NCBI GenBank assembly: GCA_963749035.1 | Contig: CAVVKW010000004.1 | Location: forward strand, 396,717 to 460,716 | Origin: an uncultured Verrucomicrobiae bacterium | Lineage (GTDB): Bacteria; Verrucomicrobiota; Verrucomicrobiia; Chthoniobacterales; JAATET01 | Length of the DNA: 64,000 nt | Direction: 5' to 3' | Shown here: one piece after another, positions 6,435 through 27,759 of the stretch | Position numbering within the stretch: position 1 is the stretch's first letter | Layout of the letters: each line of letters starts with the position of its first letter | Made by a program: the position numbers and the translations under genes | Notes under the pieces: model-generated | What the model saw: only the letters and a program-made list of their open reading frames with translations | The model's database searches: none | What the model was told of the DNA's origin: nothing

Positions 6435-7322
6435 TTGAATAAAACTCTCATCATTTTGAACCCCGCGGCCCGCGGGGAGCGCGCTAAATCCAAGGGATCG
6501 GCCATTGATGACCTCTCTAAACGCGTGGTCGTGCGCGAGACTAAGGCGGCCGGCGATGGCGAGACCATGGCCAAGCTGGCGATCGAGGAGGGGTTTGAAA
6601 CGATCATCGCGGCGGGTGGCGACGGGACGATCAACGAGGTCGTGAATGGGATCGGTGAATCGGAGGTGACGTTCGGGATTTTGCCGGTCGGGACGATGAA
6701 CGTTTTTGCGCTCGAGCTCGGAATTCCCGTGAACGATTTGGAGAAGGGATGGGAGGTTGTGGAAGCTGGTCACACGCGGGACATCGACTTGCCGCGGGCG
6801 AACGACGAATTCTTCGTGCAACTGGCGGGCGTCGGACTCGATGCGGAGGTGGTCGGGCAGGTGACGCCGGATCAGAAGAAAGTCCTGGGTCCGGTGAGTT
6901 ACGTGTTGTCGCTGGCGCAGGTCGCGGCTCGGAAGCCGCCGCTGATCCACCTGCGCGCGGGCGACGGGACGGAGCGCGAGGGGTGTTTTTTGTTGGTGGG
7001 GAACGGTCGGTTTTACGGCGGGCCCGTGGAGTTGTTTCCGGACGCGAAGCCGGACGATGGGCTCTTGGACGTGGTCTTGTTCAAAAATCAAAGTCACTGG
7101 GACGTGCTGCGGTATCTGCACGCGATCGCGTTTGGCTCGCATCCGGAGCTGCCGGACGTCGAGTATTTTCAGACGGCGGGATTGCAGGTTTCTTCGGAGA
7201 CGGACGTGCCGGTGGAGTTGGACGGAGACCTGGCGGGTTCGGTGCCGTTCGAGTTTGGATTTGCGAAGCGGAAACTGCGCGTCCTCGCGCCGCCCGTGGA
7301 TTACGAGAGAAACGACGACTAG
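6435..7322 (+). CDS. Diacylglycerol-kinase-family lipid kinase (YegS/BmrU-like)
   Basis: 295 aa. ILNPAARGERA.., AAGGDGTINEVVNG motif. Confidence 0.8.
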   Translation: MNKTLIILNPAARGERAKSKGSAIDDLSKRVVVRETKAAGDGETMAKLAIEEGFETIIAAGGDGTINEVVNGIGESEVTFGILPVGTMNVFALELGIPVNDLEKGWEVVEAGHTRDIDLPRANDEFFVQLAGVGLDAEVVGQVTPDQKKVLGPVSYVLSLAQVAARKPPLIHLRAGDGTEREGCFLLVGNGRFYGGPVELFPDAKPDDGLLDVVLFKNQSHWDVLRYLHAIAFGSHPELPDVEYFQTAGLQVSSETDVPVELDGDLAGSVPFEFGFAKRKLRVLAPPVDYERNDD

Positions 7323-16272: not shown

Positions 16273-19200
16273 TTACGCCCCTTGATATTTCTTGAAGTTC
16301 TCCGCCTGCTCGAAGATCTCCTTGTAAACCTCATCGTGGGTGATCGGCGGGTAGCCGTTCTCGGCGAGGAGAATGATGAGGTCGACTTTCAGCTCGGCCT
16401 TGATGTCGGCGCGTTGGCTCCAGTCGGTGTATTTGGCTTTGTCGTCGACGACTTCCTTCACCGCCTTGGCTAGCTTGATCAGCTTGTCCTCGGAGTAGGC
16501 GAAGTCGTATTTGACCGAGATGGCTTTGAGGATGTCATAAAAGGACTTTTCTTCGAAATCGATCCCCATCTCGCCGAAGGATTCCTTCTCCCGTTTCAAG
16601 GCGTGGTAGAGGTCGACAATTTCTCCGGCGAAGTCGTCCAGCACGTTGCTGACGAGGACATCCTGCTCGTCGCGCTCGTTGTATTTGCTCACCAACGCCT
16701 GGAACTGCTTCGTAAAATCAACGCCTTTCATCTTGTTGACCTTCTGGAAGTCCTCAATGGCACGTTTCAGCAACTGCTGCAGGAGCTTAATCTTGGTATT
16801 AGGCAGTTTGATCCTCTCAATCTTGGCGAGGTAGTCATCGCCGAAGATGTCGATCTCCGTCGCACCATTCTCGCCGAGTTTGAAAATTTCCTCGATCCCG
16901 TCACTCTGCAGAGCTGCTGAGATCATCTCCCGCACCTTGGCGTTCATCTGGGCGCTGTCGGGGGCTTCGCCCTTGGTCAGCTTGGCGACGATGGAGCGCA
17001 CGGCGAGGTAGAAGTGAATGTGGTCGCGCTCCTGCTGGGTGAAGGCATCGCTGCCGCTGCAGATGTCGTAGGCGGCTTTCAGGCGCTTCACGAGGAACAT
17101 GACCCGCTTCTCGATCTTCTCGGTGAGCTGCACGAACTCCGCGGCCAAGTTCAGGCAGTGCAGTTGCTCGACGGGCGATCCGCTGAAGTAGGGCGTGGTG
17201 TCGAACTGATGGAAAATCCGCGCCAGCAGGTCGAGGTGATCCCGCACCACGATGATGGACGCCTCGATCTCTTCGATGCTGCCACTGTCCGCCTTGGAGT
17301 AGTGTGCCAGCGCTAGGTTCATCTGCTTCTTGATGCCGATGTAGTCGACGACGAGGCCCTTCTTCTTGTTCTCAAACTTCCGGTTCACCCGCGAGATCGT
17401 CTGGATCAGGTTGTGGCGCTGGACCGGCTTGTCGATGTAGATGGTGTCGAGGAAGGGCACGTCAAAGCCCGTCAGCCACATGTCCACCACAATGGCGATT
17501 TTGAAGTTGGATTCGGCCTTCTTGAACTGGGTGTCGAACTTCTTGCGCTCGTCCTTGTTGCCGAGCAGGTCGTAGAGCGCTTTCTCGTCGTCCTTGCCCC
17601 GCGTCATCACCATCTTGAGGCGCTCCATGGGGAGGATTTCTTTCTTCTGCTGGTCGCTCAGCTCCACGCCATCGGCGCAGACCCGCACCTCGGCCCACGC
17701 GGGGCGCAGCTTGATGACTTCCTGGTAAAAGGCGTAGGCGATCTGGCGACTGCTGCTGACAAAGATAGCCTTACCCGCCACGGTGGAGCCTTCCTCGACG
17801 CGCTTCTCGTAGTGCTCTACGAAATCCGCCGCCAGAGCCTCGATGCGTTGTGGATCACCGAGGATCGCGCCCATGTTGGCCATGGTTTTCTTGCTGTCTT
17901 CGATCGCGTAGTAGCTCGCTCCGGCGTCGGCGCATTTGTCGTAGTATTTCTCGATCTCCTCCAGCTTGCTGTTGTCGAGGATGACCTTGGCGGCGCGGCC
18001 TTCGTAAACGATGGGCACGGTGATCTCGTCGGCGACCGACTCGGTCATGGTGTAGCTGTCCACCACCTCGCCGAAGACATCCAGCGTCGCATCGATGGGC
18101 GTGCCAGTGAAGCCCACGTAGGTCGCGTTCGGCAGCGAGTCGTGCAGGTATTTGGCGAAGCCAAAGGTCCGCTTCACCCCGTCTTCGGTGATCCGGAGCT
18201 TCTGGTCCAGATTCACCTGGCTGCGGTGCGCCTCGTCCGAGATACAGATCACGTTGGTGCGATCAGTCAGCCGTTCGGTGTCCTCGGTGAACTTGTGAAT
18301 GGTGGTGAGAAAGACCCCGCCGCTGTTGCGTCCTTTCAAGAGCTCCCGCAGGTGATTGCGGCTCTCCACGCTGATGACCGACTCATCGCCGATGTAGCCC
18401 TTGCCATTGGTGAACAAGCCCGAGAGCTGATCATCCAGATCGGTGCGGTCGGTGATCAGGACCAGGGTCGGGCTGGAGAGAGCCACGCTCTTCATCAGCA
18501 GCCGGGCTAGGAAGAGCATGGTGTAGCTTTTGCCGCAGCCCGTCGCCCCAAAGTAGGTGCCGCCCTTGCCATCGCCTTCCGGCTTCCGATGCTGGAGGAT
18601 GTTCCGAGACAGCTTGGTCGCCGCGTAGTATTGCGGGTAGCGGCAGAGGATCTTCTCCTCCTTGCGCGAGGTGTCGGGCAGATAGACAAAGTTTCGGATG
18701 ACATCCAACAGCCGAGTCTGGTGAAACAGCCCCTTGACCATGGTATCGAGAGATTTAATCCCTTCCGCCTCCTTGAGCTCGCTGCCGTCTGTCTTCCGCC
18801 AGGCATAGAAAAATTCATAGGGAGCGAAGAACGATCCGGATTTTGTGTTCGCCCCATCTGAGATCACACAAACCGCGTTGTATTTGAACAGTTCCGGAAT
18901 ATCCCGCTTGTAACGAGTCGTGAGCTGCACGTAAGCCTCGTGGATTCTGATCTCCTCGCGGATTGCGCTCTTGAATTCAAACACCACCAGGGGCAGGCCG
19001 TTGATGTAGAGGATGCCGTCCGGGACGCGCTTTTCGTAGCCGACGATCTCCAACTGACTGACGATCTTAAAAATGTTGCCGCTCGCTCCGTAGGTCGCCG
19101 CGTCCTCCGCCACGATGGAGGGCACCTCGCCGGGCTCCGGTTCGCGAAAGGCAGCCAGCTCCGAGTAATCGATCAGCTGAATGTAGAGATCCTTCTGGGT

Positions 19201-19491
19201 GTGGTCTTCCCGCTTCAGGAGGAAGCCGTCCGAGACCAGCTTCATGATCGCCTTATTGCTCTCGTAGAGATCCGCCGCCGTGTAGGCTTCGAGCTGCTTG
19301 ATGACCGCCTCGATTTCCTGCGGCGTGATGTGGTCGGCGGAGTATTGCTTGGCGAGGAAGGAGCGGAGGTCGGCTTTGATGAGAACTTCCTGCGGCTGAC
19401 GCTCAATCGCCTCGCCCAACACGTGCGGATATCCCTCGGCTCCGAGAAGCTTGATGATCGCAGATTCGAGTTGGGCTTCGGTGAATTTCAT
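16273..19491 (-). CDS. hsdR: Type I restriction enzyme R subunit
   Basis: Start at MKFTEAQLES (the ATG overlaps the abiEii stop, ATGA). PD-ExK nuclease motif PDGILYINGLPLVVFEFKS, Walker A GATGCGKSYTM, DEAH box ICISDEAHRSQ, long helical C-terminus. Confidence 0.9.
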   Translation of the reverse strand: MKFTEAQLESAIIKLLGAEGYPHVLGEAIERQPQEVLIKADLRSFLAKQYSADHITPQEIEAVIKQLEAYTAADLYESNKAIMKLVSDGFLLKREDHTQKDLYIQLIDYSELAAFREPEPGEVPSIVAEDAATYGASGNIFKIVSQLEIVGYEKRVPDGILYINGLPLVVFEFKSAIREEIRIHEAYVQLTTRYKRDIPELFKYNAVCVISDGANTKSGSFFAPYEFFYAWRKTDGSELKEAEGIKSLDTMVKGLFHQTRLLDVIRNFVYLPDTSRKEEKILCRYPQYYAATKLSRNILQHRKPEGDGKGGTYFGATGCGKSYTMLFLARLLMKSVALSSPTLVLITDRTDLDDQLSGLFTNGKGYIGDESVISVESRNHLRELLKGRNSGGVFLTTIHKFTEDTERLTDRTNVICISDEAHRSQVNLDQKLRITEDGVKRTFGFAKYLHDSLPNATYVGFTGTPIDATLDVFGEVVDSYTMTESVADEITVPIVYEGRAAKVILDNSKLEEIEKYYDKCADAGASYYAIEDSKKTMANMGAILGDPQRIEALAADFVEHYEKRVEEGSTVAGKAIFVSSSRQIAYAFYQEVIKLRPAWAEVRVCADGVELSDQQKKEILPMERLKMVMTRGKDDEKALYDLLGNKDERKKFDTQFKKAESNFKIAIVVDMWLTGFDVPFLDTIYIDKPVQRHNLIQTISRVNRKFENKKKGLVVDYIGIKKQMNLALAHYSKADSGSIEEIEASIIVVRDHLDLLARIFHQFDTTPYFSGSPVEQLHCLNLAAEFVQLTEKIEKRVMFLVKRLKAAYDICSGSDAFTQQERDHIHFYLAVRSIVAKLTKGEAPDSAQMNAKVREMISAALQSDGIEEIFKLGENGATEIDIFGDDYLAKIERIKLPNTKIKLLQQLLKRAIEDFQKVNKMKGVDFTKQFQALVSKYNERDEQDVLVSNVLDDFAGEIVDLYHALKREKESFGEMGIDFEEKSFYDILKAISVKYDFAYSEDKLIKLAKAVKEVVDDKAKYTDWSQRADIKAELKVDLIILLAENGYPPITHDEVYKEIFEQAENFKKYQGA

Positions 19492-20387
19492 GTTGTCGCG
19501 GGGAGCCGTCGCCAATTTTCCGAGGGAACCCAGCGATGATCGGTGACGTCTCCCTTGATCACGGGTGAGAGGAACGCTGAGAGATCGCTGACGACTTCAG
19601 CGAGCGGCGTGGGATTGAGCTTTCCTTTGCGCAGGAAGGCATTCCACTGTAGAAGCTTTTGCTGATTCGTGCTGAACCTCTCGGTGAAAGCCACGGGAGG
19701 TGCTTTGGGAATATTTGCCCCCCGCCGTTCGAAGGTATTGATGACGGCTTCTGTGAGATCGTTCCCGTCGAATTCAGTGTGAGACTGAAGCCAGTGCAGG
19801 TCGAAGAAATCCTTCATCCGGCTGTTGTCGATCCCAAGAGAAACAGCCGCCTCCAGCTTCTCCGCGACTACCGTTTCGGGAGGATACACAAGCAGGCTGG
19901 CACTGGGGAAATCGAGAAGCTCGTGCCATTCCTTTTCCTCCGCAGCCGGCGTAATGGCATCGCCGAATCCCACATCGATCTGAATACCGAGGCGGGCTCC
20001 CGCGAGTCCAACGCCCACCCTGGCCCGGATCCCTCCGTATTCCATCTCTTCACGAATCGGTGCCACGGCAACCTCTTCCCACTCGAGACCATCGTCGGGA
20101 TCGATATCCATCTGAAGCAGCCCGGTGAAGATCGTGTGAATCGCCTCCTCGGTGGGTTCCCCGTATCCGAGAAGGTCCAGATCACGGGTGGGCCGATGTT
20201 CCTCCACCCCCCAAATCCGGAACAGTTGCGCCCCTTTCAACACAAAACGTTCCCGATACTCGCTCTGCGCGAGGCGATAGAGAAAGCGCCCGGTCGCATA
20301 CTGCTCCAGCAAGGCACTCAAAGGCTCTCCCTCTGCACGGGAAAGGTTGAGAAGCCTGGCGCGAACGGAAGCAGCGACGTTTTTCAT
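19488..20387 (-). CDS. abiEii: AbiEii/AbiGii-family nucleotidyltransferase toxin (type IV TA)
   Basis: 299 aa. MKNVAASVRARLLNLSRAEG.., NTase motif RPTRDLDLLGY. Confidence 0.85.
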   Translation of the reverse strand: MKNVAASVRARLLNLSRAEGEPLSALLEQYATGRFLYRLAQSEYRERFVLKGAQLFRIWGVEEHRPTRDLDLLGYGEPTEEAIHTIFTGLLQMDIDPDDGLEWEEVAVAPIREEMEYGGIRARVGVGLAGARLGIQIDVGFGDAITPAAEEKEWHELLDFPSASLLVYPPETVVAEKLEAAVSLGIDNSRMKDFFDLHWLQSHTEFDGNDLTEAVINTFERRGANIPKAPPVAFTERFSTNQQKLLQWNAFLRKGKLNPTPLAEVVSDLSAFLSPVIKGDVTDHRWVPSENWRRLPATT

Positions 20388-20989
20388 ATCATCGCCTCCA
20401 GATAGGGTCTCATCATTTTGCCGACCCGCAGAAGCCGGGCCATTTCGCTGATCTCGCTGAGCTTTGCTTTCCGTTCGTTCAGAGTCTCACGAAGCGCCTC
20501 CACGCAGACGTCGATTCCCAGCTTGTTGCGGTGTTTGAAGCAATCCGCCACCGTCCGTGCCGGGGTCGTGACGGCGACACTGGTGCCGCCGAGCGGGTGG
20601 TGTTCGACCCCCTCTGCTTCGAGCGCTTTCACCCGGGTTCGGATCACCCGGATCGGGGGCCAGTCGATCTTCGGAACCCGCGTCTGCGCCGGGAGTTGAA
20701 TCCAAATCTCATGAGGCGATTGGGTGCCAATCTCGTGAAAACGGAGCGCACTGATCAGCACGACCACAGCCCGCGGGGCGCTCTTGGTGATCTGGATCAG
20801 ATCGTGATGCTCACTGATGGCACTCTCCGGATGTTCATAAATCCCGCGCCGCACCCGAACCAGCGTTCCCTTTTCAACCAGTCGGGAAATACTCCGGTCG
20901 GAAACGCCGGCATCCAGAAGCTGCCGCGTCGTCAGCACCTCATTGGCAGAGGCGAGCGCGGAAAGCTTTTTCTGGAGCGTGGACGTCAT
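20384..20989 (-). CDS. abiEi: AbiEi-family antitoxin / transcriptional regulator
   Basis: 201 aa. N-terminal winged HTH (VLTTRQLLDAGVSDRSISRLVEKGTLVRVRRGIY). 4-nt overlap with abiEii. Confidence 0.8.
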   Translation of the reverse strand: MTSTLQKKLSALASANEVLTTRQLLDAGVSDRSISRLVEKGTLVRVRRGIYEHPESAISEHHDLIQITKSAPRAVVVLISALRFHEIGTQSPHEIWIQLPAQTRVPKIDWPPIRVIRTRVKALEAEGVEHHPLGGTSVAVTTPARTVADCFKHRNKLGIDVCVEALRETLNERKAKLSEISEMARLLRVGKMMRPYLEAMI

Positions 20990-20994
20990 TACGA

Positions 20995-21040
20995 TGTCGG
21001 AAATCGTTATACATTCTCATACATTGTACGACAATTGGCA
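20995..21040 (-). promoter_or_regulatory. Candidate abiE promoter/operator with repeated ATACATT heptamers
   Basis: cgttATACATTctcATACATTgtacgacaattg lies 10-45 bp upstream of the abiEi ATG. An AT-rich patch in an otherwise GC-rich spacer. Confidence 0.3.
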
Positions 21041-21102
21041 ACAGTAAGCCCGACGTCTTTGGTGGGCGCAAAGCGCGCCGAACCCATACTGGCAGCGGAC
21101 GA

Positions 21103-21471
21103 CACTTCGCCAGGCTCCGGCTCGCGAAAGGCAGCCAGCTCCGATTAATCGATCAACTGGATGTAGAGATCCTTCTGGGTGTGGTCCTCGCGCTTGAGGA
21201 GGAAGCCATCCGAGACCAGCTTCATGATCGCCTTGTTGCTCTCGTAGAGATCGGCGGCGGAGTAGGCTTCGAGCCGCTTGATGACCGCCGCGATTTCCTG
21301 CGGCGTGATGTGGTCGGCGGCATATTGCTTGGCGAGGAAGGCCCGCAGGTCGGCTTTGATGAGAACTTCTTGCGATTGGCGCTCAATCGCCTCGCCCAAC
21401 ACGTGCGGGTAGCCCTCGGCTCCGAGGAGCTCGATGATGGCTGATTCGAGTTGGGCTCCGGAGAATTTCAT
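21103..21471 (-). pseudogene. Duplicated 5' fragment of hsdR (first 108 codons, then an in-frame TAA)
   Basis: MKFSGAQLESAIIELLGAEGYPHVLGEAIERQSQ..LYIQLID* matches HsdR residues 1-108 at 99/108 positions. Homology continues about 14 codons past the stop and ends near 21103. Confidence 0.85.
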
Positions 21472-22340
21472 TTTTTCGGATCAACGGAGACTTCTCCGAG
21501 TTTTCGGTCATGCTTCCGTCCAGACTCGAACGCAGTGAAGCCGGGGCGCGGAGTCGTGTTTCGACTGCTGTCATAGTAAACGCTAAGAACGCCTGTTAGG
21601 AGAAACTGAAGAGCCATGTGGTTCTCTTCATCATCGTGCTCTAGCAAAACGAATTCGGCCTTGTCACATTTTCCATTGGGCCTCCGCTTGAAGATGCTCC
21701 AGTCATTGAAGCAGCCCAAGTAACCTACTAAATCCTCAAATCCACTCTGATCTCCGTATACTTCTTGGAGCTTTTCAAAAATCCAATCCTTCGTGTCCTT
21801 TTCCTTCTTTTCGATAAGCGAGGTCATCGAGATCAGGCCCAAATATGGCCGTCTTACCGATTGGCCTCCGCTATCGAAATGAACGCACAGCTCTGAAACA
21901 CGCTTCAATGCCGAGCACTCCTTTACAATATCACCGTCCCGCAGATTCTTCTTTATGGAGAAAACCGCTACCACGCCCTCTGGAGGAACTATCGCGTTTT
22001 TCTCGAAGCGTTGATAGACGGGGAATTTCGATGATTCATATACGATGATATCGAGCTGGCTGGAATGCGCGTCGTTTTCATCCTTTCGAGACCTTCCATT
22101 CAGCCCAGTTTTGACTGCTGGGCGAAGAATGAAACCAGTTAGGATTTCGAGCTCCTTAGGAAGGAACTTTCTCAGGTAAGCAGTAATCAATGACTCTACA
22201 TATCTTCCATCTTCACCTGAGTGAGCGGACCCGGATGTCTCCTTACTTGGAATCAAGATCTGAAATTGACGGTATGTGGCAAGAAGAGCCTCTATCTCAT
22301 TTGAAAAATATTCTCTTATTCGTTTTCCATCCATAGTCAT
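21468..22340 (-). CDS. Hypothetical PD-(D/E)xK-like (DUF6602-style) putative nuclease, partner of the RT
   Basis: 290 aa. GEDGRYVESLITAYLRKFLPKE .. SSQLDIIVYES .. PPEGVVAVFSIKKNL fits the restriction-endonuclease-like pattern (E .. D .. S-x-K variant). The stop overlaps the hsdR-fragment ATG (ATGA). Lower GC than the flanks. Confidence 0.55.
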   Translation of the reverse strand: MTMDGKRIREYFSNEIEALLATYRQFQILIPSKETSGSAHSGEDGRYVESLITAYLRKFLPKELEILTGFILRPAVKTGLNGRSRKDENDAHSSQLDIIVYESSKFPVYQRFEKNAIVPPEGVVAVFSIKKNLRDGDIVKECSALKRVSELCVHFDSGGQSVRRPYLGLISMTSLIEKKEKDTKDWIFEKLQEVYGDQSGFEDLVGYLGCFNDWSIFKRRPNGKCDKAEFVLLEHDDEENHMALQFLLTGVLSVYYDSSRNTTPRPGFTAFESGRKHDRKLGEVSVDPKK

Positions 22341-22408: not shown

Positions 22409-23914
22409 TCAGCGCAAGTCCGCGTCACTCCAGATTGTGTATATCAGGAGCCACTGGGCATCCTGATCTTGTTTCTCTTGGCTCTTTAGATTGTTCGCTC
22501 GTGTTCGTAGCCACTTCTTGACTTTGGTAAGACTCTTTCGGGTGGCGTATTCCCAGAGGAGGACATTACTCAGGCAGTCGTCGATCTGAATGATTGCCTT
22601 AAGTTCGTCTTCCGTGAGGTTGATTTCAAAGTCGTGTTCGATCGCGAAGTAGAGAGCGTGGGCGACCGAGTCTGGCTGAATCTTTTCAATCCCAATTTTG
22701 ATTAACTCGTTTCCAAGATCTTCGATCTGGTCATCCGTTTCGGGGTTTCGATGCTTCACGAACGCGCACTCCTCCATGATGGGAGCGAGATACGGATAGG
22801 CGAGGCAGAGGTTGGTGCCCTCAGCGGTGAACAGGCGCTTCGCTCGATCATTCAACCGCTTTGGCACCATCTTGATTGCATAGTTCAAGACAGCCGAAGT
22901 GCCATGTTGCCTGCTCAATTCGAGGGCGAGATCCAAGAATGAGCGAACAGTCGAAAAGCGAATTTCTTCTTCGGGAAACGTGAATCGATTGAGCTCGTTC
23001 ACCCAGCTAGCAGATACCGGCTGGGGAAGCTCAACGATCTGTGTTTTCTTTTCGTTGAGGTAGAGCTCATATTCGCGGAGCGCCAAATTCAGGTCTCGAA
23101 CAAACGTTTCTGCCTCCTGGTGGCTCGTTGCGTAGAACGTGTAATCGTCGATGTGGCGAGTGAGGCGGGTATAGTCCTTTTTCAGCAGAGTTTCATCAAT
23201 CCTCGTGAGGATGATTTCAGAAATCACGTTTGAAGAATGAGGGCCAATCGCTAAGCCATTGGTTTGATTGTCGGAGAGAATCTGACACGACCTATCGAGT
23301 AGATTTCCCTCCAGGAGGAGGTCGCGATTTCTCTTCGCATTGGCTTTCCCATGAATCGCCCAAGGAATTGAATGGGTGTAGATGCTCGGAAAGCACTTGG
23401 AAATATCAGCCTTAACCAAATGGGTTGCCCCGGTTTGATAGCCGATTTCATCTTCCTCCACCTCGAAGCGTTCCAAGCCTTTGTAGTTCATCTTGAAGAC
23501 GCGGTCTTTGCTCGTTTGCCGAACGAAGATGCGGCTGATCGGCTTTGAGGGCTTGGCGCAATGAGTTTTGATTTTCTGCCAGCACCTCTTGATTGCAAGG
23601 CAGTGCGCTAAGTAACTTTCCGGGTGGGGTATCGCTAAATGGCGAGGAATATTGATGTCTCGCAACGACTGGTATCGGATCTGTGAATGAATGACTTTCT
23701 CAAAGTGTTCTTTGAGCTGATTCGAGTCAGTTTCTGTTTCGATCTTTGCCAGAGCTGCATTGACGTGAGCTGACAGGCCTTCCGAGGTGAAGCACGGCGG
23801 GATCTTCTCAGCGAACAGACCGAATTCGGTGAGTCCTTCAAAGACTCCCTCTGCGCTTAAGTCGCGCCCGGTCGTTTGGCGAAGAATCGCCGAAAAGTTC
23901 AAGGTGGGACTCAT
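22409..23914 (-). CDS. Abi/UG-type (defence-associated) reverse transcriptase with a helical C-terminal domain
   Basis: 501 aa. RT motifs: INIPRHLAIPHPESY (1/2), LVKADISKCFPSIYTHSI (A), NGLAIGPHSSNVISEIIL (B), LTRHIDDYTFYATS (C, xxDD), YELYLNEKKTQI (D). About 200 aa of helical C-terminal region. No En/X/maturase features. The ATG overlaps the hsdS stop (ATGA). Confidence 0.8.
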   Translation of the reverse strand: MSPTLNFSAILRQTTGRDLSAEGVFEGLTEFGLFAEKIPPCFTSEGLSAHVNAALAKIETETDSNQLKEHFEKVIHSQIRYQSLRDINIPRHLAIPHPESYLAHCLAIKRCWQKIKTHCAKPSKPISRIFVRQTSKDRVFKMNYKGLERFEVEEDEIGYQTGATHLVKADISKCFPSIYTHSIPWAIHGKANAKRNRDLLLEGNLLDRSCQILSDNQTNGLAIGPHSSNVISEIILTRIDETLLKKDYTRLTRHIDDYTFYATSHQEAETFVRDLNLALREYELYLNEKKTQIVELPQPVSASWVNELNRFTFPEEEIRFSTVRSFLDLALELSRQHGTSAVLNYAIKMVPKRLNDRAKRLFTAEGTNLCLAYPYLAPIMEECAFVKHRNPETDDQIEDLGNELIKIGIEKIQPDSVAHALYFAIEHDFEINLTEDELKAIIQIDDCLSNVLLWEYATRKSLTKVKKWLRTRANNLKSQEKQDQDAQWLLIYTIWSDADLR

Positions 23915-25323
23915 CCGGCCACATCCTCAACTAGTTCGCTTGTGTCGGAAAGGCGGATTTCCTTGGAGATAAGTTTCGGGAGGAGGGTGTCGCGGAGCTT
24001 TGTGAGGGTTTCTGTAGAGAGTCGGTTCTCGTAACCTCGCGAATAGATTGAGGAAACAGCTCTATTGAATCGGTCAAGCAGCGTCGCGGTCGGCTTGAAG
24101 ACCATGAGTCGCTTCATGTCACCGGCTGTGAAATGCCCGAGCCCCGTGGTTTGTTTGTCCCTGGCAAGCTCCGCGAAGGTGGAGCGGAGATACTTGAGCT
24201 GATAGTAGACGAAGTAGCGTTCGGACTCGTCGTGGAGACGGACGTTGAAGATGTGCTGATTAAGATAGCCGGGGCCGTTTGTCCAAATGAACGTGTCGAT
24301 GGAGGTGTCGGGGTTGCCTGACCAAGAAAGCAGGATGTCACCATCTTCGACTCTGTATTTGTCGCCTTTGTTGTTCGTAGTAAACTTGGTTTGGCCTGTG
24401 ATTCCCGCTTTTACCTCCGCAATTTTAATGACTGGTAAAGCAGCCTCAGCGTCAGAGAAGTCTGCTCCCTTGTAAGCAGCTCCGTTGACGAAATCCGCGA
24501 TGTCGTAGAGAGGCTGAGTTTCCCAGCCTTCCGGGATCGGGCCAAGTTCATCGTAGTATTCAAACGCGGCAGGGAAGAGGGATTGGGGATCAGACAGGGT
24601 TGGGTGGTCGACGGAACCCTGTTGGGTGGTGCCGTTGGCGAGGGCTTTCTTTCGGACTTCGGCGCGGGAGGCGAGTTCGTCGGGGATGGGATTGCCGGCG
24701 GCGAGGGCATTGTCGATCACCGGGTCAAGGTCCACAAACCAGCTTTTGAAGAGCGCCTGCGCCATCCCTTCCAGCGTCGCATTCATCCGCCGATTCAACT
24801 CAATCTTGTCATCCAAGGTGCCCAAGATGTGAGCGATCGCTTTCTGCTCGGGGAGGGGTGGGAGGATGAATGGGACTGCGGAAAGAATGCTCGTATTCAG
24901 GTTAGGCATCGTAGCGCCGATAGCGTGCCGAACGATCCACTCCCGACACTGAGCGCCTCCCAATTGGAATGATGCATACTCCGGATCTACCAATTCTTTG
25001 TCGAATCGAATGCGTAAGCAGCCCGTCCCGCAAAGCCACCCGTCTTCGGCTTCTCTAACCAATGCACGTCGCTCAACATCACCTCGTCTGCTGTAAACGA
25101 CATCTCCAGGTTCGACTCGGTACTTTGAAAGTCGCTCTGCGTCTTCCTCACTGATTCGCGCGATGCTCTCGGTTGTGATCCGGTTGTCGGCGATATTGAC
25201 GGGCATTATCGACGGGATGCCTTCCTCGACATAATCCGACTTATGGAGCTGGCTTCCAAAAGGACCAGTTTGGACGCTTAGAGAAGCATCTGCGAGGGTC
25301 ACCTCTTGCCGCTCACTTCCCAT
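23911..25323 (-). CDS. hsdS: Type I restriction enzyme specificity subunit
   Basis: 470 aa. Two target-recognition halves separated by conserved helical spacers (..LPPLPEQKAIAHILGTLDDKIELNRRMN.. and ..LRDTLLPKLISKEI..). Confidence 0.88.
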   Translation of the reverse strand: MGSERQEVTLADASLSVQTGPFGSQLHKSDYVEEGIPSIMPVNIADNRITTESIARISEEDAERLSKYRVEPGDVVYSRRGDVERRALVREAEDGWLCGTGCLRIRFDKELVDPEYASFQLGGAQCREWIVRHAIGATMPNLNTSILSAVPFILPPLPEQKAIAHILGTLDDKIELNRRMNATLEGMAQALFKSWFVDLDPVIDNALAAGNPIPDELASRAEVRKKALANGTTQQGSVDHPTLSDPQSLFPAAFEYYDELGPIPEGWETQPLYDIADFVNGAAYKGADFSDAEAALPVIKIAEVKAGITGQTKFTTNNKGDKYRVEDGDILLSWSGNPDTSIDTFIWTNGPGYLNQHIFNVRLHDESERYFVYYQLKYLRSTFAELARDKQTTGLGHFTAGDMKRLMVFKPTATLLDRFNRAVSSIYSRGYENRLSTETLTKLRDTLLPKLISKEIRLSDTSELVEDVAG

Positions 25324-25432
25324 ACCCCATGCCCTCCAGGTTTTTCCGAATCACTTCATCCAGCTTTGCCGACTCCTCCATTTGCGCGATTAGCGTCTGG
25401 CTCAGCTCGGTCATTTTAGTCTCAAAGGAAAT
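25313..25432 (-). pseudogene. Duplicated 3' end of hsdM (last ~38 codons) preserved immediately upstream of hsdS
   Basis: SFETKMTELSQTLIAQMEESAKLDEVIRKNLEGMGYGK* versus the intact HsdM C-terminus PFETKMTELSQTLYGQMEESAKLDEVIRKNLEGLGYGK* (34/38). Keeps the ATGGGAAGTGA stop/start junction with hsdS. Confidence 0.85.
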
Positions 25433-25440
25433 CGATCGGT

Positions 25441-26127
25441 TCATGGTTTTGGCCACTTGTTCAGAATTTGATCAATCCACGGCTGCAATCCGGCCTGTCG
25501 GATCGCAACGAATCGGTCGAGGACCGTCGTGAAGTCTTTCAGCTTTGGAGACATCCATTCAATCACATCGAGAATACTTTGATGGCGTTGATCCAGGTCT
25601 TGCCAGTGAGGGATCCGCTCATGATGGAAAACCCGGTTGCGCAGATCGCGAATGTCCTTCCAGCGTCGGTCCAGTTTGTTTTGCACTTGCTCAGTACTTA
25701 GGGCGTGGGGAAATGCCCTCCTTGATAGGAATGCTCCAATACCAGTCCGGGCATGGGCGTTGTTGAAGAATCCAGTCCAGAATCCGAAGTTGAGCTCAGC
25801 GACAATTCTTCCCGGGGTAAGTGGCTTCGTGAGTCTGCTCAAGGTGCGCTTGGCTTCGTCCAGCTTGTCCTGTTGCCAATAGGTGAGTCGTGCTTGGGGC
25901 GAGTCGTACCAGGCATCGGTTCCACACCGTGCAGACAGCTCACGATGCACCGCGTTTCGGAGGGCGATTTCCGAGAATTGGAGTGTAGGGTAGAGGGCCC
26001 CGCTGAGGGCCATATTCAGCAAATAGCGTCCAAGAGTAGTTTTTTCATCCGCCCCATCTTGGCGATAGGCGTCAATCCGCTCTGTATGCAGATTCCCTTC
26101 GACTTCCTTGAAAAAATCGGGATTCAC
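25441..26127 (-). CDS. Abi_2 (AbiD/AbiF-like) HEPN-domain abortive-infection protein
   Basis: 228 aa. EIALRNAVHREL and the HEPN R-x4-H motif in IRDLRNRVFHHERI. Architecture typical of Abi-like proteins inserted in Type I R-M loci. Confidence 0.7.
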   Translation of the reverse strand: MNPDFFKEVEGNLHTERIDAYRQDGADEKTTLGRYLLNMALSGALYPTLQFSEIALRNAVHRELSARCGTDAWYDSPQARLTYWQQDKLDEAKRTLSRLTKPLTPGRIVAELNFGFWTGFFNNAHARTGIGAFLSRRAFPHALSTEQVQNKLDRRWKDIRDLRNRVFHHERIPHWQDLDQRHQSILDVIEWMSPKLKDFTTVLDRFVAIRQAGLQPWIDQILNKWPKP

Positions 26128-26277: not shown

Positions 26278-27759
26278 TCACTTCCCATACCCCAAGCCCT
26301 CCAAGTTTTTCCGAATCACTTCATCCAGCTTCGCGGATTCCTCCATCTGCCCGTAGAGCGTCTGGCTCAGCTCGGTCATCTTGGTTTCGAACGGAATTCC
26401 GTCGTCCTCCAACGTCGCCGCGCCCACATAGCGTCCGGGAGTGAGCACGAAGTCGTGCTTGCGGATGTCTTCGAGGGTGGCGGATTTGCAGTAGCCTGCC
26501 ACGTCGGCATAGGCCTCGGTGGAGTTTTCAGTGTTCAGTTTTGAGTTTTCAGTTGGAGTTTGGCTTCGCCAGTTGTGGTAAGTCCTTGCGATGTGCTCGA
26601 TATCTTCTGCTGAGAGTTCCTTCTGCGTCCGGCTGATCATGGCGCCGATCTTGCGGGCATCGATGAAGAGGGTCTCGCCTTCGCGGTTGCGATAGTCGCG
26701 TTCGTTGTTGGCCTTTTTGTTTTTGGTCAGGAACCAGAGGCAGACGGGGATCTGGGTGGTGTAGAAGAGTTGGCCGGGCAGGGCGATCATGCAGTCGACG
26801 AGGTCGTTCTCGACGAGTTTTTGGCGGATCTCGCCTTCGCCCTTGGTGTTGGTGGACATGGAGCCGTTGGCGAGGACGAAGCCGGCGACCCCGTTTTCCG
26901 AGAGTTTGCTCACCATGTGGAGAATCCAGGCGTAGTTGGCATTGCCGGTGGGCGGGGTGTCGTAGCCGTTCCAGCGTCCGTCGTGGACGAGTTCGTCGGG
27001 GCCGCGCCAGTCCTTCAGGTTGAAGGGGGGATTGGCCATGATGTAGTCGGCCTTGAGGTCGGGGTGTTGATCCTTGAAGAAAGTGTCGGCGGGGACTTCG
27101 CCGAGGTTGGCGGAGAGCCCGCGCACGGCGAGGTTCATCTTGGCCAGCTTGTAGGTGGTGGCGGCAGACTCCTGCCCGTAGACGGAGATGTCCTTCTTGC
27201 TGCCGTGGTGGCTTTCGACAAACTTGATCGACTGGACGAACATGCCGCCGGAGCCGCAGCAGGGGTCGTAGATCTTGCCTTTGTAGGGCTCGATCATTTC
27301 GGCAATGAGATTGACGACGCACTTCGGGGTGTAGAACTCGCCCCCGAGCTTGCCCTCGGAGGCAGCGAATTTGCCGAGGAAGTATTCATAGACCCGGCCG
27401 ACGGTGTCCTCCTCCTTGTCCTCGACGGTGTCGATGTTGTTGATGGCATCGATGAGGGCGGAGAGCTTGCTGCCATCGAGCCCGAGGCGGGAGAAGTAGT
27501 TGTCGGGCAAGGCGCCCTTGAGCGAGGCATTACTCGCCTCCACGTCGGTGAGGGCGGAGTCGATCTTGATGGCGATGTCGCCCTGCTTGGCATGCTGCTG
27601 GATGTAGGACCAGCGGGAGGTCTCCGGCAGGTAGAAGACATTCTGCATGGTGTAGAACTCGACCATGTCGAGGTAGTCGTCCTTGCCCTCGGCCACGAGC
27701 TCGGCCCGGCGCTCCTCGAAGGATTTGGTGGATTTCTTGATTGGTGTCGGGTTTGACAT
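26278..27759 (-). CDS. hsdM: Type I restriction enzyme methyltransferase subunit
   Basis: Start at MSNPTPIKKST (ATG 27759), 493 aa. AdoMet motif IYDPCCGSGGMF, catalytic IMANPPFN. The upstream extension in the ORF track is a repeat-derived reading. Confidence 0.9.
   Translation of the reverse strand: MSNPTPIKKSTKSFEERRAELVAEGKDDYLDMVEFYTMQNVFYLPETSRWSYIQQHAKQGDIAIKIDSALTDVEASNASLKGALPDNYFSRLGLDGSKLSALIDAINNIDTVEDKEEDTVGRVYEYFLGKFAASEGKLGGEFYTPKCVVNLIAEMIEPYKGKIYDPCCGSGGMFVQSIKFVESHHGSKKDISVYGQESAATTYKLAKMNLAVRGLSANLGEVPADTFFKDQHPDLKADYIMANPPFNLKDWRGPDELVHDGRWNGYDTPPTGNANYAWILHMVSKLSENGVAGFVLANGSMSTNTKGEGEIRQKLVENDLVDCMIALPGQLFYTTQIPVCLWFLTKNKKANNERDYRNREGETLFIDARKIGAMISRTQKELSAEDIEHIARTYHNWRSQTPTENSKLNTENSTEAYADVAGYCKSATLEDIRKHDFVLTPGRYVGAATLEDDGIPFETKMTELSQTLYGQMEESAKLDEVIRKNLEGLGYGK
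26522..26563. repeat. Heptamer-periodic tract (6 units) inside hsdM
   Basis: gagtttt cagtgtt cagtttt gagtttt cagttgg agtttgg. Encodes ..TENSKLNTENSTE... Confidence 0.8.

Follow-up and report, generated by a model that had tools for sequence, protein, structure and literature searches.

Defence genes have repeatedly been found embedded in larger anti-phage loci. They occur within type I restriction-modification (R-M), BREX, DISARM and Hma loci (Payne et al. 2024, preprint, doi 10.1101/2024.01.29.577857), TgvAB sits inside the type I operon of V. cholerae VPI-2 (PMC11411939), and rlo and mlo open reading frames (ORFs) lie in Campylobacter hsd loci (Miller et al. 2005, cited in PMC5183652). Genes nested in R-M operons are now used to discover anti-phage systems, and their route of entry is left unexplained in the literature that we searched. 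Here, we describe a type I R-M operon in a 64,000-nt stretch of DNA from an uncultured Verrucomicrobiae bacterium (hereafter the window, to whose positions all coordinates refer), in which an abiEi-abiEii cassette is flanked by a truncated and an intact copy of the start of hsdR. Like the published loci, this operon nests anti-phage cassettes on the same strand between hsd genes. As far as the available text goes, those papers describe the embedding and not how it came about, whereas the window locus keeps gene-end remnants that would record the splicing. In the accessible text of the Payne preprint the terms 'recombination', 'remnant' and 'truncat' do not occur, and in the literature searched we found papers on embedding only and no description of such remnants.

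Comparison of the window with itself, by repeat search and direct comparison, revealed one ungapped direct repeat of 375 nt at an offset of 1980 nt, in good agreement with the duplication of about 370 bp that a preliminary description of this DNA had placed on either side of abiEi-abiEii. Copy A (19117-19491, minus strand) comprises codons 1-125 of the intact hsdR, and copy B (21097-21471, minus strand) is a remnant of the same codons located upstream of the abiE genes. The genome of 3.79 Mb holds just these two copies. They are identical at 339 of 375 nucleotides (90.4%), and 25 of the 36 differences are found at third codon positions. At the protein level we obtained the same value as given earlier, 99 identical residues over the first 108 codons, with replacements at codons 4, 5, 14, 33, 44, 51, 61, 66 and 71. 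At codon 109, hsdR reads TAC but the remnant TAA (21145-21147), which is the Tyr-to-stop change by which the upstream copy had been said to be killed. Homology to hsdR indeed ends abruptly, but at 21097 and not near 21103 as first proposed, and is followed by about 50 nt of unmatched filler DNA (21046-21096). Both copies begin at an ATG that overlaps the preceding stop codon as ATGA, as had been described: the remnant with the stop of a DUF6602 gene at 21468-21471, and hsdR with the stop of abiEii at 19488-19491. In Pfam, the remnant scores 22.5 bits for HSDR_N against a cut-off of 25.1 and, covering codons 1-125 only, it is not a member of the HsdR family.

The preliminary description had also argued that the repeat is not a fresh target-site duplication, and we agree. 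A transposon or insertion sequence (IS) origin was rejected on the basis of the length of 375 nt, the identity of 90.4% and the lack of inverted repeats flanking the cassette; in addition, no transposase was found among the genes of the operon using Pfam and PADLOC. An assembly artefact was rejected as well, since L185, an independent metagenome contig, has the same structure (relatives from public data are coded as L-numbered loci or contigs and P-numbered proteins; L185 and L188-L191 are short metagenome contigs). The filler is common to the window and L185, with 4 differences. It showed no homology to hsdR or to other abiE loci, and a search of 400 further genomes from the phylum did not find it. 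A search for the joint in these 400 genomes gave only partial matches, to the remnant part, and the locus is not carried by relatives of the same genus.

The divergence between the two copies indicates that they derive from two different alleles. Synonymous (dS) and non-synonymous (dN) divergence were estimated according to Nei-Gojobori. Over the full length, copies A and B differ with a dS of 0.37 and a dN of 0.036 in the window, and with a dS of 0.30 and a dN of 0.053 for the L185 pair, with a dN/dS near 0.1. Over nt 151-375, the dS is 0.28-0.34. Between hsdR genes of different genomes, we found dS values of 0.28 (A and L190), 0.24 (B and L190) and 0.22 (L190 and L012). As the silent divergence between the copies at least equals that between alleles of different genomes while dN is low, the copies diverged as working genes before they were joined. 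For a copy that had been dead since a duplication, a dN of about 0.19 would be expected at a dS of about 0.34, whereas 0.03 was observed. Nearly all of the divergence thus appears to have arisen while both copies were working hsdR genes in separate lineages. Changes specific to the remnant, as polarised with 11 relatives, are the nonsense codon and T4S, E5G, P33S and E61A at otherwise invariant residues, and these seem to represent recent decay. In a tree of all 375 nt, copy A groups with L011 and L012 and copy B is found across a 94% split, which is partly driven by a chimeric first 150 nt. The tree of nt 151-375 contains a clade with A and a clade with B (98% each), which form a three-way split with the other alleles (65% support). 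Because of this three-way split, the two-allele claim rests on dS and dN and not on topology. Copies A and B are both about 89% identical to L190, which makes this comparison uninformative on which of them was donor and which was recipient.

The 108-aa fragment was also compared to a protein collection, in which 269 short ORFs of HsdR starts were found. One of these, P0003 of L185, reads through the same joint peptide (..EVSSAANMGSARFAPTKDVG.TVANCRTMYE.V) and has a Tyr where the window has TAA. L185 begins with the end of hsdS, after which come an ATPase-like gene (771 aa), a gene of 108 aa, the remnant, the two abiE genes (abiEi, then abiEii) and hsdR. Positions 3359-6688 of L185 are 96.4% identical to 21472-18143 of the window; homology begins at the ATG of the remnant, and the genes upstream of it are unrelated. 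A survey of other genomes for abiE in front of hsdR with the same junction, as suggested earlier, thus led to a locus with the same remnant, joint, abiE and hsdR, and the event is not private to the window genome.

Differences between the remnants of the window and L185 are unevenly spread, with 16 in nt 1-150 (89% identity) and 4 in nt 151-375 (98% identity; Fisher p = 2.5e-4). Two of these four are replacements, and one is a nonsense change. The dS between the two loci is 0.24 for nt 1-150 of the remnant, 0.02 for nt 151-375, 0.054 for abiEi, 0.063 for abiEii and 0.10-0.20 for hsdR. As the dS is lower in remnant nt 151-375, the joint and abiE, the ancestor of this block is more recent than that of either flank. 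One boundary of the block is a crossover within the remnant, at about 21290-21322 (about nt 150-180 from its ATG), which means that the dead stub has served as a substrate for homologous recombination. In this event, two diverged operons traded either the abiE block or the upstream cassettes. The remnant structure is older than the split from L185. The TAA alone is private to the window lineage.

An unoccupied site is evidently still present in relatives. The public DUF6602 genes closest to that of the window encode P0121 (91% aa identity) and P0122 (80% aa identity). In their contigs, L190/L191 and L188/L189, the stop codon of DUF6602 overlaps the ATG of hsdR, with neither a remnant nor abiE in between, and this hsdR continues beyond codon 125 to the end of the contig and enters the nuclease motif region. 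Positions 17-1254 of L190 are colinear with 22334-21097 of the window at 89.5% identity. This colinearity ends exactly at 21097, and the remainder of L190 matches the intact hsdR of the window. L188 in addition has the C-terminal part of a reverse transcriptase (RT) upstream of DUF6602 and hsdR, which shows that RT-DUF6602-hsdR without abiE is a real arrangement.

We then surveyed the 80 closest hsdR loci, in 60 of which both hsdS and hsdR are in view. The gap between these genes is occupied in 50 of the 60, and 14 of the 50 occupied gaps contain at least one remnant of an hsdR start. In the other 10 loci hsdS adjoins hsdR, and no remnants are found (0/10). Remnants are also present in L017, L025 and L033, where hsdS is out of view. 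The cassettes behind the remnants include AbiE pairs (AbiEi_4 or DUF6088 with AbiEii), Schlafen-AlbA_2/HATPase_c_4, deaminase-HATPase_c_4, RhuM, 23S-rRNA-IVP, GIY-YIG, PDDEXK_4, an AAA-subtilase pair and a Thoeris ThsA/ThsB pair, and this content turns over fast among related operons. A Rubritalea metagenome-assembled genome (MAG; L186) carries DUF6602, a 37-codon remnant, DUF6088/AbiEii and hsdR. In L043 two remnants are found in series, each with an ATGA overlap to the gene in front, as if cassettes had been added one by one next to hsdR. The remnants end after about 25 to 161 codons, and in 11 loci (L013-L052) the endpoints concentrate at nt 75-105, immediately beyond the very conserved block MKFTEAQLE.AII.LLG.EGYPHVLGE. 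Among about 20 loci, identity between a remnant and the hsdR of the locus in which it lies never exceeds 97%. Eight remnants (L014, L015, L020, L029, L031, L033, L043 and L072), roughly half of those compared, match the hsdR of another genome better than their own: the L031 remnant shares 72% identity with its own hsdR and 93.5% with that of L010, the L029 remnant 86% with its own and 96.6% with a foreign gene, and the L014 remnant 82% and 94%, respectively. As a separate observation, a 113-codon remnant of hsdR in L184 (4672-8775) precedes a Thoeris pair (ThsA_Macro, ThsB_TIR), and after this pair come a Transposase_20 gene and another HSDR_N fragment.

A mirror image of this structure is found in the same operon. 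Between an Abi_2 cassette and hsdS, positions 25313-25432 (minus strand) hold a 120-nt copy of the last 40 codons of hsdM, which is 86.7% identical to 26278-26397 and retains the overlap of the hsdM stop with the hsdS start. The same Abi_2 arrangement is present in L020, and additional hsdM ends occur in L028, L070, L081 and L084. In either gap, what was duplicated comes from the conserved neighbour (hsdM or hsdR) and never from the variable hsdS.

Taken together, we consider it likely that the upstream hsdR copy is a recombination scar, left when the abiE cassette was spliced into the type I R-M operon. In the ancestral operon, DUF6602, or another gene in that gap, would have been located directly before hsdR. 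The front part of the resident hsdR would then have been replaced by DNA of a type I locus that was related yet diverged, and in which abiEi-abiEii had previously become coupled to that locus's hsdR start. The downstream joint would have been homologous, inside hsdR, and the upstream joint presumably non-homologous, after codon 125 of the resident gene, so that all operon genes would stay whole and a stub of 125 codons would be left. Where genes abut or overlap, only insertions that bring along a replacement gene end would keep the system working, and gene-end stubs are what is seen probably because only such insertions leave a working operon. The stub would subsequently have decayed by the TAA and by replacements at invariant residues. 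Being still about 90% identical to live hsdR starts, it would have offered a second target for homologous recombination, and through the crossover at about nt 150 the abiE block would have come to lie behind upstream cassettes that differ between two lineages. Once the structure exists, homologous double crossovers in the two copies of the hsdR start could move or swap cassettes; the crossover in the remnant, as seen between the window and L185, is direct evidence that such homologous exchange happens.

These results bear on the two explanations offered in the preliminary description. A block from a related but distinct type I locus is supported by the dS of 0.30-0.37 between the copies, which is as large as between genomes, and by the comparison of nearest relatives, which places the two hsdR starts in separate 98% clades over nt 151-375. 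That this block was recombined in through the conserved hsdR 5' region holds for the downstream joint but not for the upstream joint (21096/21097), which appears to be non-homologous. The second explanation, a cassette that carries an hsdR homology arm, fits with L185, which shares remnant nt 151-375, the joint and abiE at a dS of 0.02-0.06 and differs upstream. Our data support the notion that both explanations describe one process. More tentatively, remnants and live gene ends could in general act as direct repeats that turn a cassette into a unit which RecA recombination pops out, moves to any other type I operon that is related, stacks and swaps. Type I R-M operons would then resemble cassette arrays without an integrase, in which the latest addition lies beside hsdR, an idea that we see as possible but doubtful; the crossover in the remnant, the serial remnants of L043 and the cluster at nt 75-105 would be traces of such traffic.

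A different entry route would be a Campbell-type integration, in which a circle with abiE and one 375-nt piece of the hsdR 5' end enters the start of the resident hsdR through one homologous crossover. Such a circle could arise, for instance, when a donor locus recombines between its two repeats and the DNA between them pops out, and its integration would need no new non-homologous joint. This model predicts exactly the observed layout of direct repeats with the truncated copy upstream and the intact copy downstream, as well as the mirror layout for the hsdM 3' end, and it would account both for the occurrence of one joint behind differing upstream genes and for the abundance of remnants. However, the reciprocal chimera that it predicts was not observed between the window and L185. 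With a remnant composed of recipient nt 1-150 and donor nt 151-375, nt 1-150 of hsdR would have to be of donor type and common to both loci. Their hsdR nt 1-150 are not shared (dS 0.20), and nt 1-150 of copy A of the window are only 89.3% identical to those of copy B of L185. On these two values we reject a Campbell model for the difference between the window and L185, a test that covers a later exchange and not the founding event. For the founding event the model still requires an earlier non-homologous event that made the joint, and the remnants end at different positions (29, 36, 53, 61 and 125 codons) among loci with related AbiE. On balance, we regard Campbell-type integration as unlikely. 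A tandem duplication made in place at the hsdR start, for instance through unequal crossing-over or faulty replication on the arrival of abiE, with later divergence of the two copies, seems very unlikely to us. It is true that A and B are closest to each other, with 90.4% identity compared to at most 89.6% to full-length alleles of other genomes, except L185, and that the tree of nt 151-375 cannot separate them from sister copies. On the other hand, such a duplication conflicts with the low dN discussed above and with a silent divergence equal to that between alleles of different genomes. The full 375 nt put the copies on opposite sides of the 94% split, the roughly 20 loci compared contain no young pair above 97%, and many remnants are foreign, that of L031 being an example.

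The remnant might also be a working small gene, encoding a free HsdR N-terminal peptide that regulates restriction or that couples translation of the cassette to the operon. Its ATG overlaps the upstream stop, so ribosomes probably enter, the 269 ORFs show that many such short frames are called in public data, and the endpoints of 11 loci cluster near codons 25-35. Nevertheless, the frame is interrupted by the TAA, which is absent from the L185 orthologue, and two of the four differences between the window and L185 in the shared part are replacements, with one nonsense change besides. Moreover, the replacements affect residues that are invariant in 11 relatives, the nuclease motif region (..VVFEFK.., codons about 170-180) is lacking, and the frames of relatives extend for differing lengths into sequence that is unrelated. 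A functional small gene therefore seems highly improbable. Several observations also weigh against the splicing history that we favour. At nt 151-375 the tree leaves the three-way split, and it is dN/dS rather than topology that disfavours an old in-place duplication. No parental alleles closer than about 90% were found. As hsdR itself is mosaic, its higher divergence between the window and L185 compared to abiE could reflect later exchanges. Finally, a purely random non-homologous joint does not predict the cluster of endpoints at nt 75-105.

The abiE genes themselves (minus strand) have the features of described AbiE type IV toxin-antitoxin systems. AbiEi (20384-20989), the antitoxin and transcriptional regulator, has an N-terminal winged helix-turn-helix and matches AbiEi_4 above the cut-off (Pfam, 2.4e-12; PADLOC AbiEi, 4.3e-70). 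AbiEii (19488-20387), the nucleotidyltransferase toxin of the pair (Pfam PF08843, 1.1e-43; PADLOC AbiEii, 3.6e-100), is encoded directly downstream in a bicistronic unit, in which the abiEi stop overlaps the abiEii start by 4 nt (20384-20387). AbiE systems have their own promoter with inverted repeats that are bound by AbiEi, resulting in negative autoregulation. In the window, about 52 nt before the abiEi ATG are conserved among the closest cassettes (L025, L090 and L093), and homology ends there; this leader (20990-21045, minus strand) marks the cassette's own left edge. The sole sigma-70-like site in 19300-21700 is TTGCCA-17-GAGAAT at 21041-21013 on the minus strand. The leader probably holds the promoter and operator of the cassette, and abiEi-abiEii is most likely a standard self-contained, self-regulated AbiE module. 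The likeness to known AbiE systems thus extends from the two-gene layout with its 4-nt overlap, the AbiEi_4 winged helix-turn-helix and the AbiEii nucleotidyltransferase to the conserved promoter-like leader. While the proteins are ordinary, their position is unusual, with the abiEii stop overlapping the hsdR start.

The closest abiE cassettes (70-83% aa identity; L025, L090, L091, L092 and L185) are tied to this hsdR family, four of them having hsdR or a piece of it directly after abiEii. Only L093 has no hsdR at that place, and more distant abiE cassettes are not tied to the family. In L090, two hsdR scraps (6991-7240; residues 454-515 and 1050-1072) follow an abiEii of 77% identity. This locus looks like a decaying operon in which the cassette outlives the restriction gene. 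The ATGA overlaps arise because the start of hsdR, ATGAAA, itself contains TGA, and at no fewer than 16 junctions in relatives (at least 16, L010-L191) unrelated genes end on that TGA (AbiEii, RT, RhuM, Schlafen-type, PDDEXK_4 and DUF6602). A conserved leader before hsdR as the cause of the ATGA was rejected, as the 12 nt before the ATG are not conserved. The shared TGA would fit with cassettes that have travelled with an hsdR start for a long time. Judged from these overlaps, hsdR appears to be translationally coupled to abiEii, as the cassettes of relatives would be to hsdR or a remnant. The remnant, in turn, is most likely inert because of its nonsense codon, relaxed constraint and lack of the nuclease motif.

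All genes between 16 and 28 kb are located on the minus strand, in the order hsdM (26278 to about 27760), Abi_2 (25441-26127; PD-T4-5-like in PADLOC), hsdS (23911-25323), RT (22409-23914; Drt4-like in PADLOC, 4e-150), DUF6602 (21468-22340), remnant, abiEi, abiEii and hsdR. The operon thus has defence genes other than hsd nested between hsd genes. DUF6602 (Pfam PF20247) is a PD-(D/E)xK or NucC-like gene (PADLOC PD_DExK/NucC). RT and DUF6602 are not fixed partners: L011 (6616-8187) has a 91%-identical RT that adjoins hsdR, with no DUF6602, and in L186 (7170-9885) DUF6602 comes after an OLD-like ATPase. The RT-DUF6602 pair recurs in L188 (55-1736). The G+C content is 0.44-0.52 in RT and DUF6602 and 0.56-0.61 (about 0.59) in the remnant, abiE and hsdR, and this step sits at the ATG of the remnant (boundary ~21500). 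The intact hsdR (16273-19491) encodes a restriction subunit of 1072 aa that combines an N-terminal nuclease, an SF2 motor and a C-terminal helical domain in one polypeptide (Pfam HSDR_N, SWI2_SNF2/ResIII, T1R_D3-like and T1RH-like_C) and is 87-90% identical at the aa level to HsdR of Verrucomicrobiota MAGs. When 16273-19491 was compared with L022, L010, L011 and L012, nt 1051-1300 showed 94-96% identity to hsdR from a gammaproteobacterial MAG (Piscirickettsiaceae), against only 57% over the first 150 nt. This mosaic suggests segment exchange across phyla.

At 375 nt, the remnant is unusually long and therefore sufficient to date and map the event. The locus points to a cassette that arrived with the start of a foreign hsdR allele, and to a leftover stub that has since been used as a crossover point to swap neighbouring cassettes. 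Moreover, as short ORFs annotated as 'type I restriction enzyme R subunit' mark the boundaries of cassettes, they could be used to delimit embedded cassettes automatically.

The proposed entry can be compared to homology-facilitated illegitimate recombination, which was reportedly described in naturally transformable bacteria by de Vries and Wackernagel and by Prudhomme and co-workers in 2002. By analogy, the incoming DNA would have been anchored by homology, here in hsdR, with its other end joined non-homologously nearby. The difference is that here the joint would lie inside the recipient's copy of the anchor gene, resulting in a duplication rather than a deletion. Capsule and O-antigen loci are exchanged via conserved flanking genes, and translocatable units of IS26 use the repeated element as homology. 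In the same way, a conserved repeat on each side of the abiE cassette lets homologous recombination move or swap it, as seen from the crossover in the remnant. In the window, however, the 'flank' is a dead piece of a neighbouring gene that was made by the insertion itself, and the operon has no transposase or integrase. The embedding of defence genes in type I operons is already well described; to this, the window locus adds a remnant long enough for analysis of rates and breakpoints, an orthologous locus with a crossover, and relatives with an empty site.

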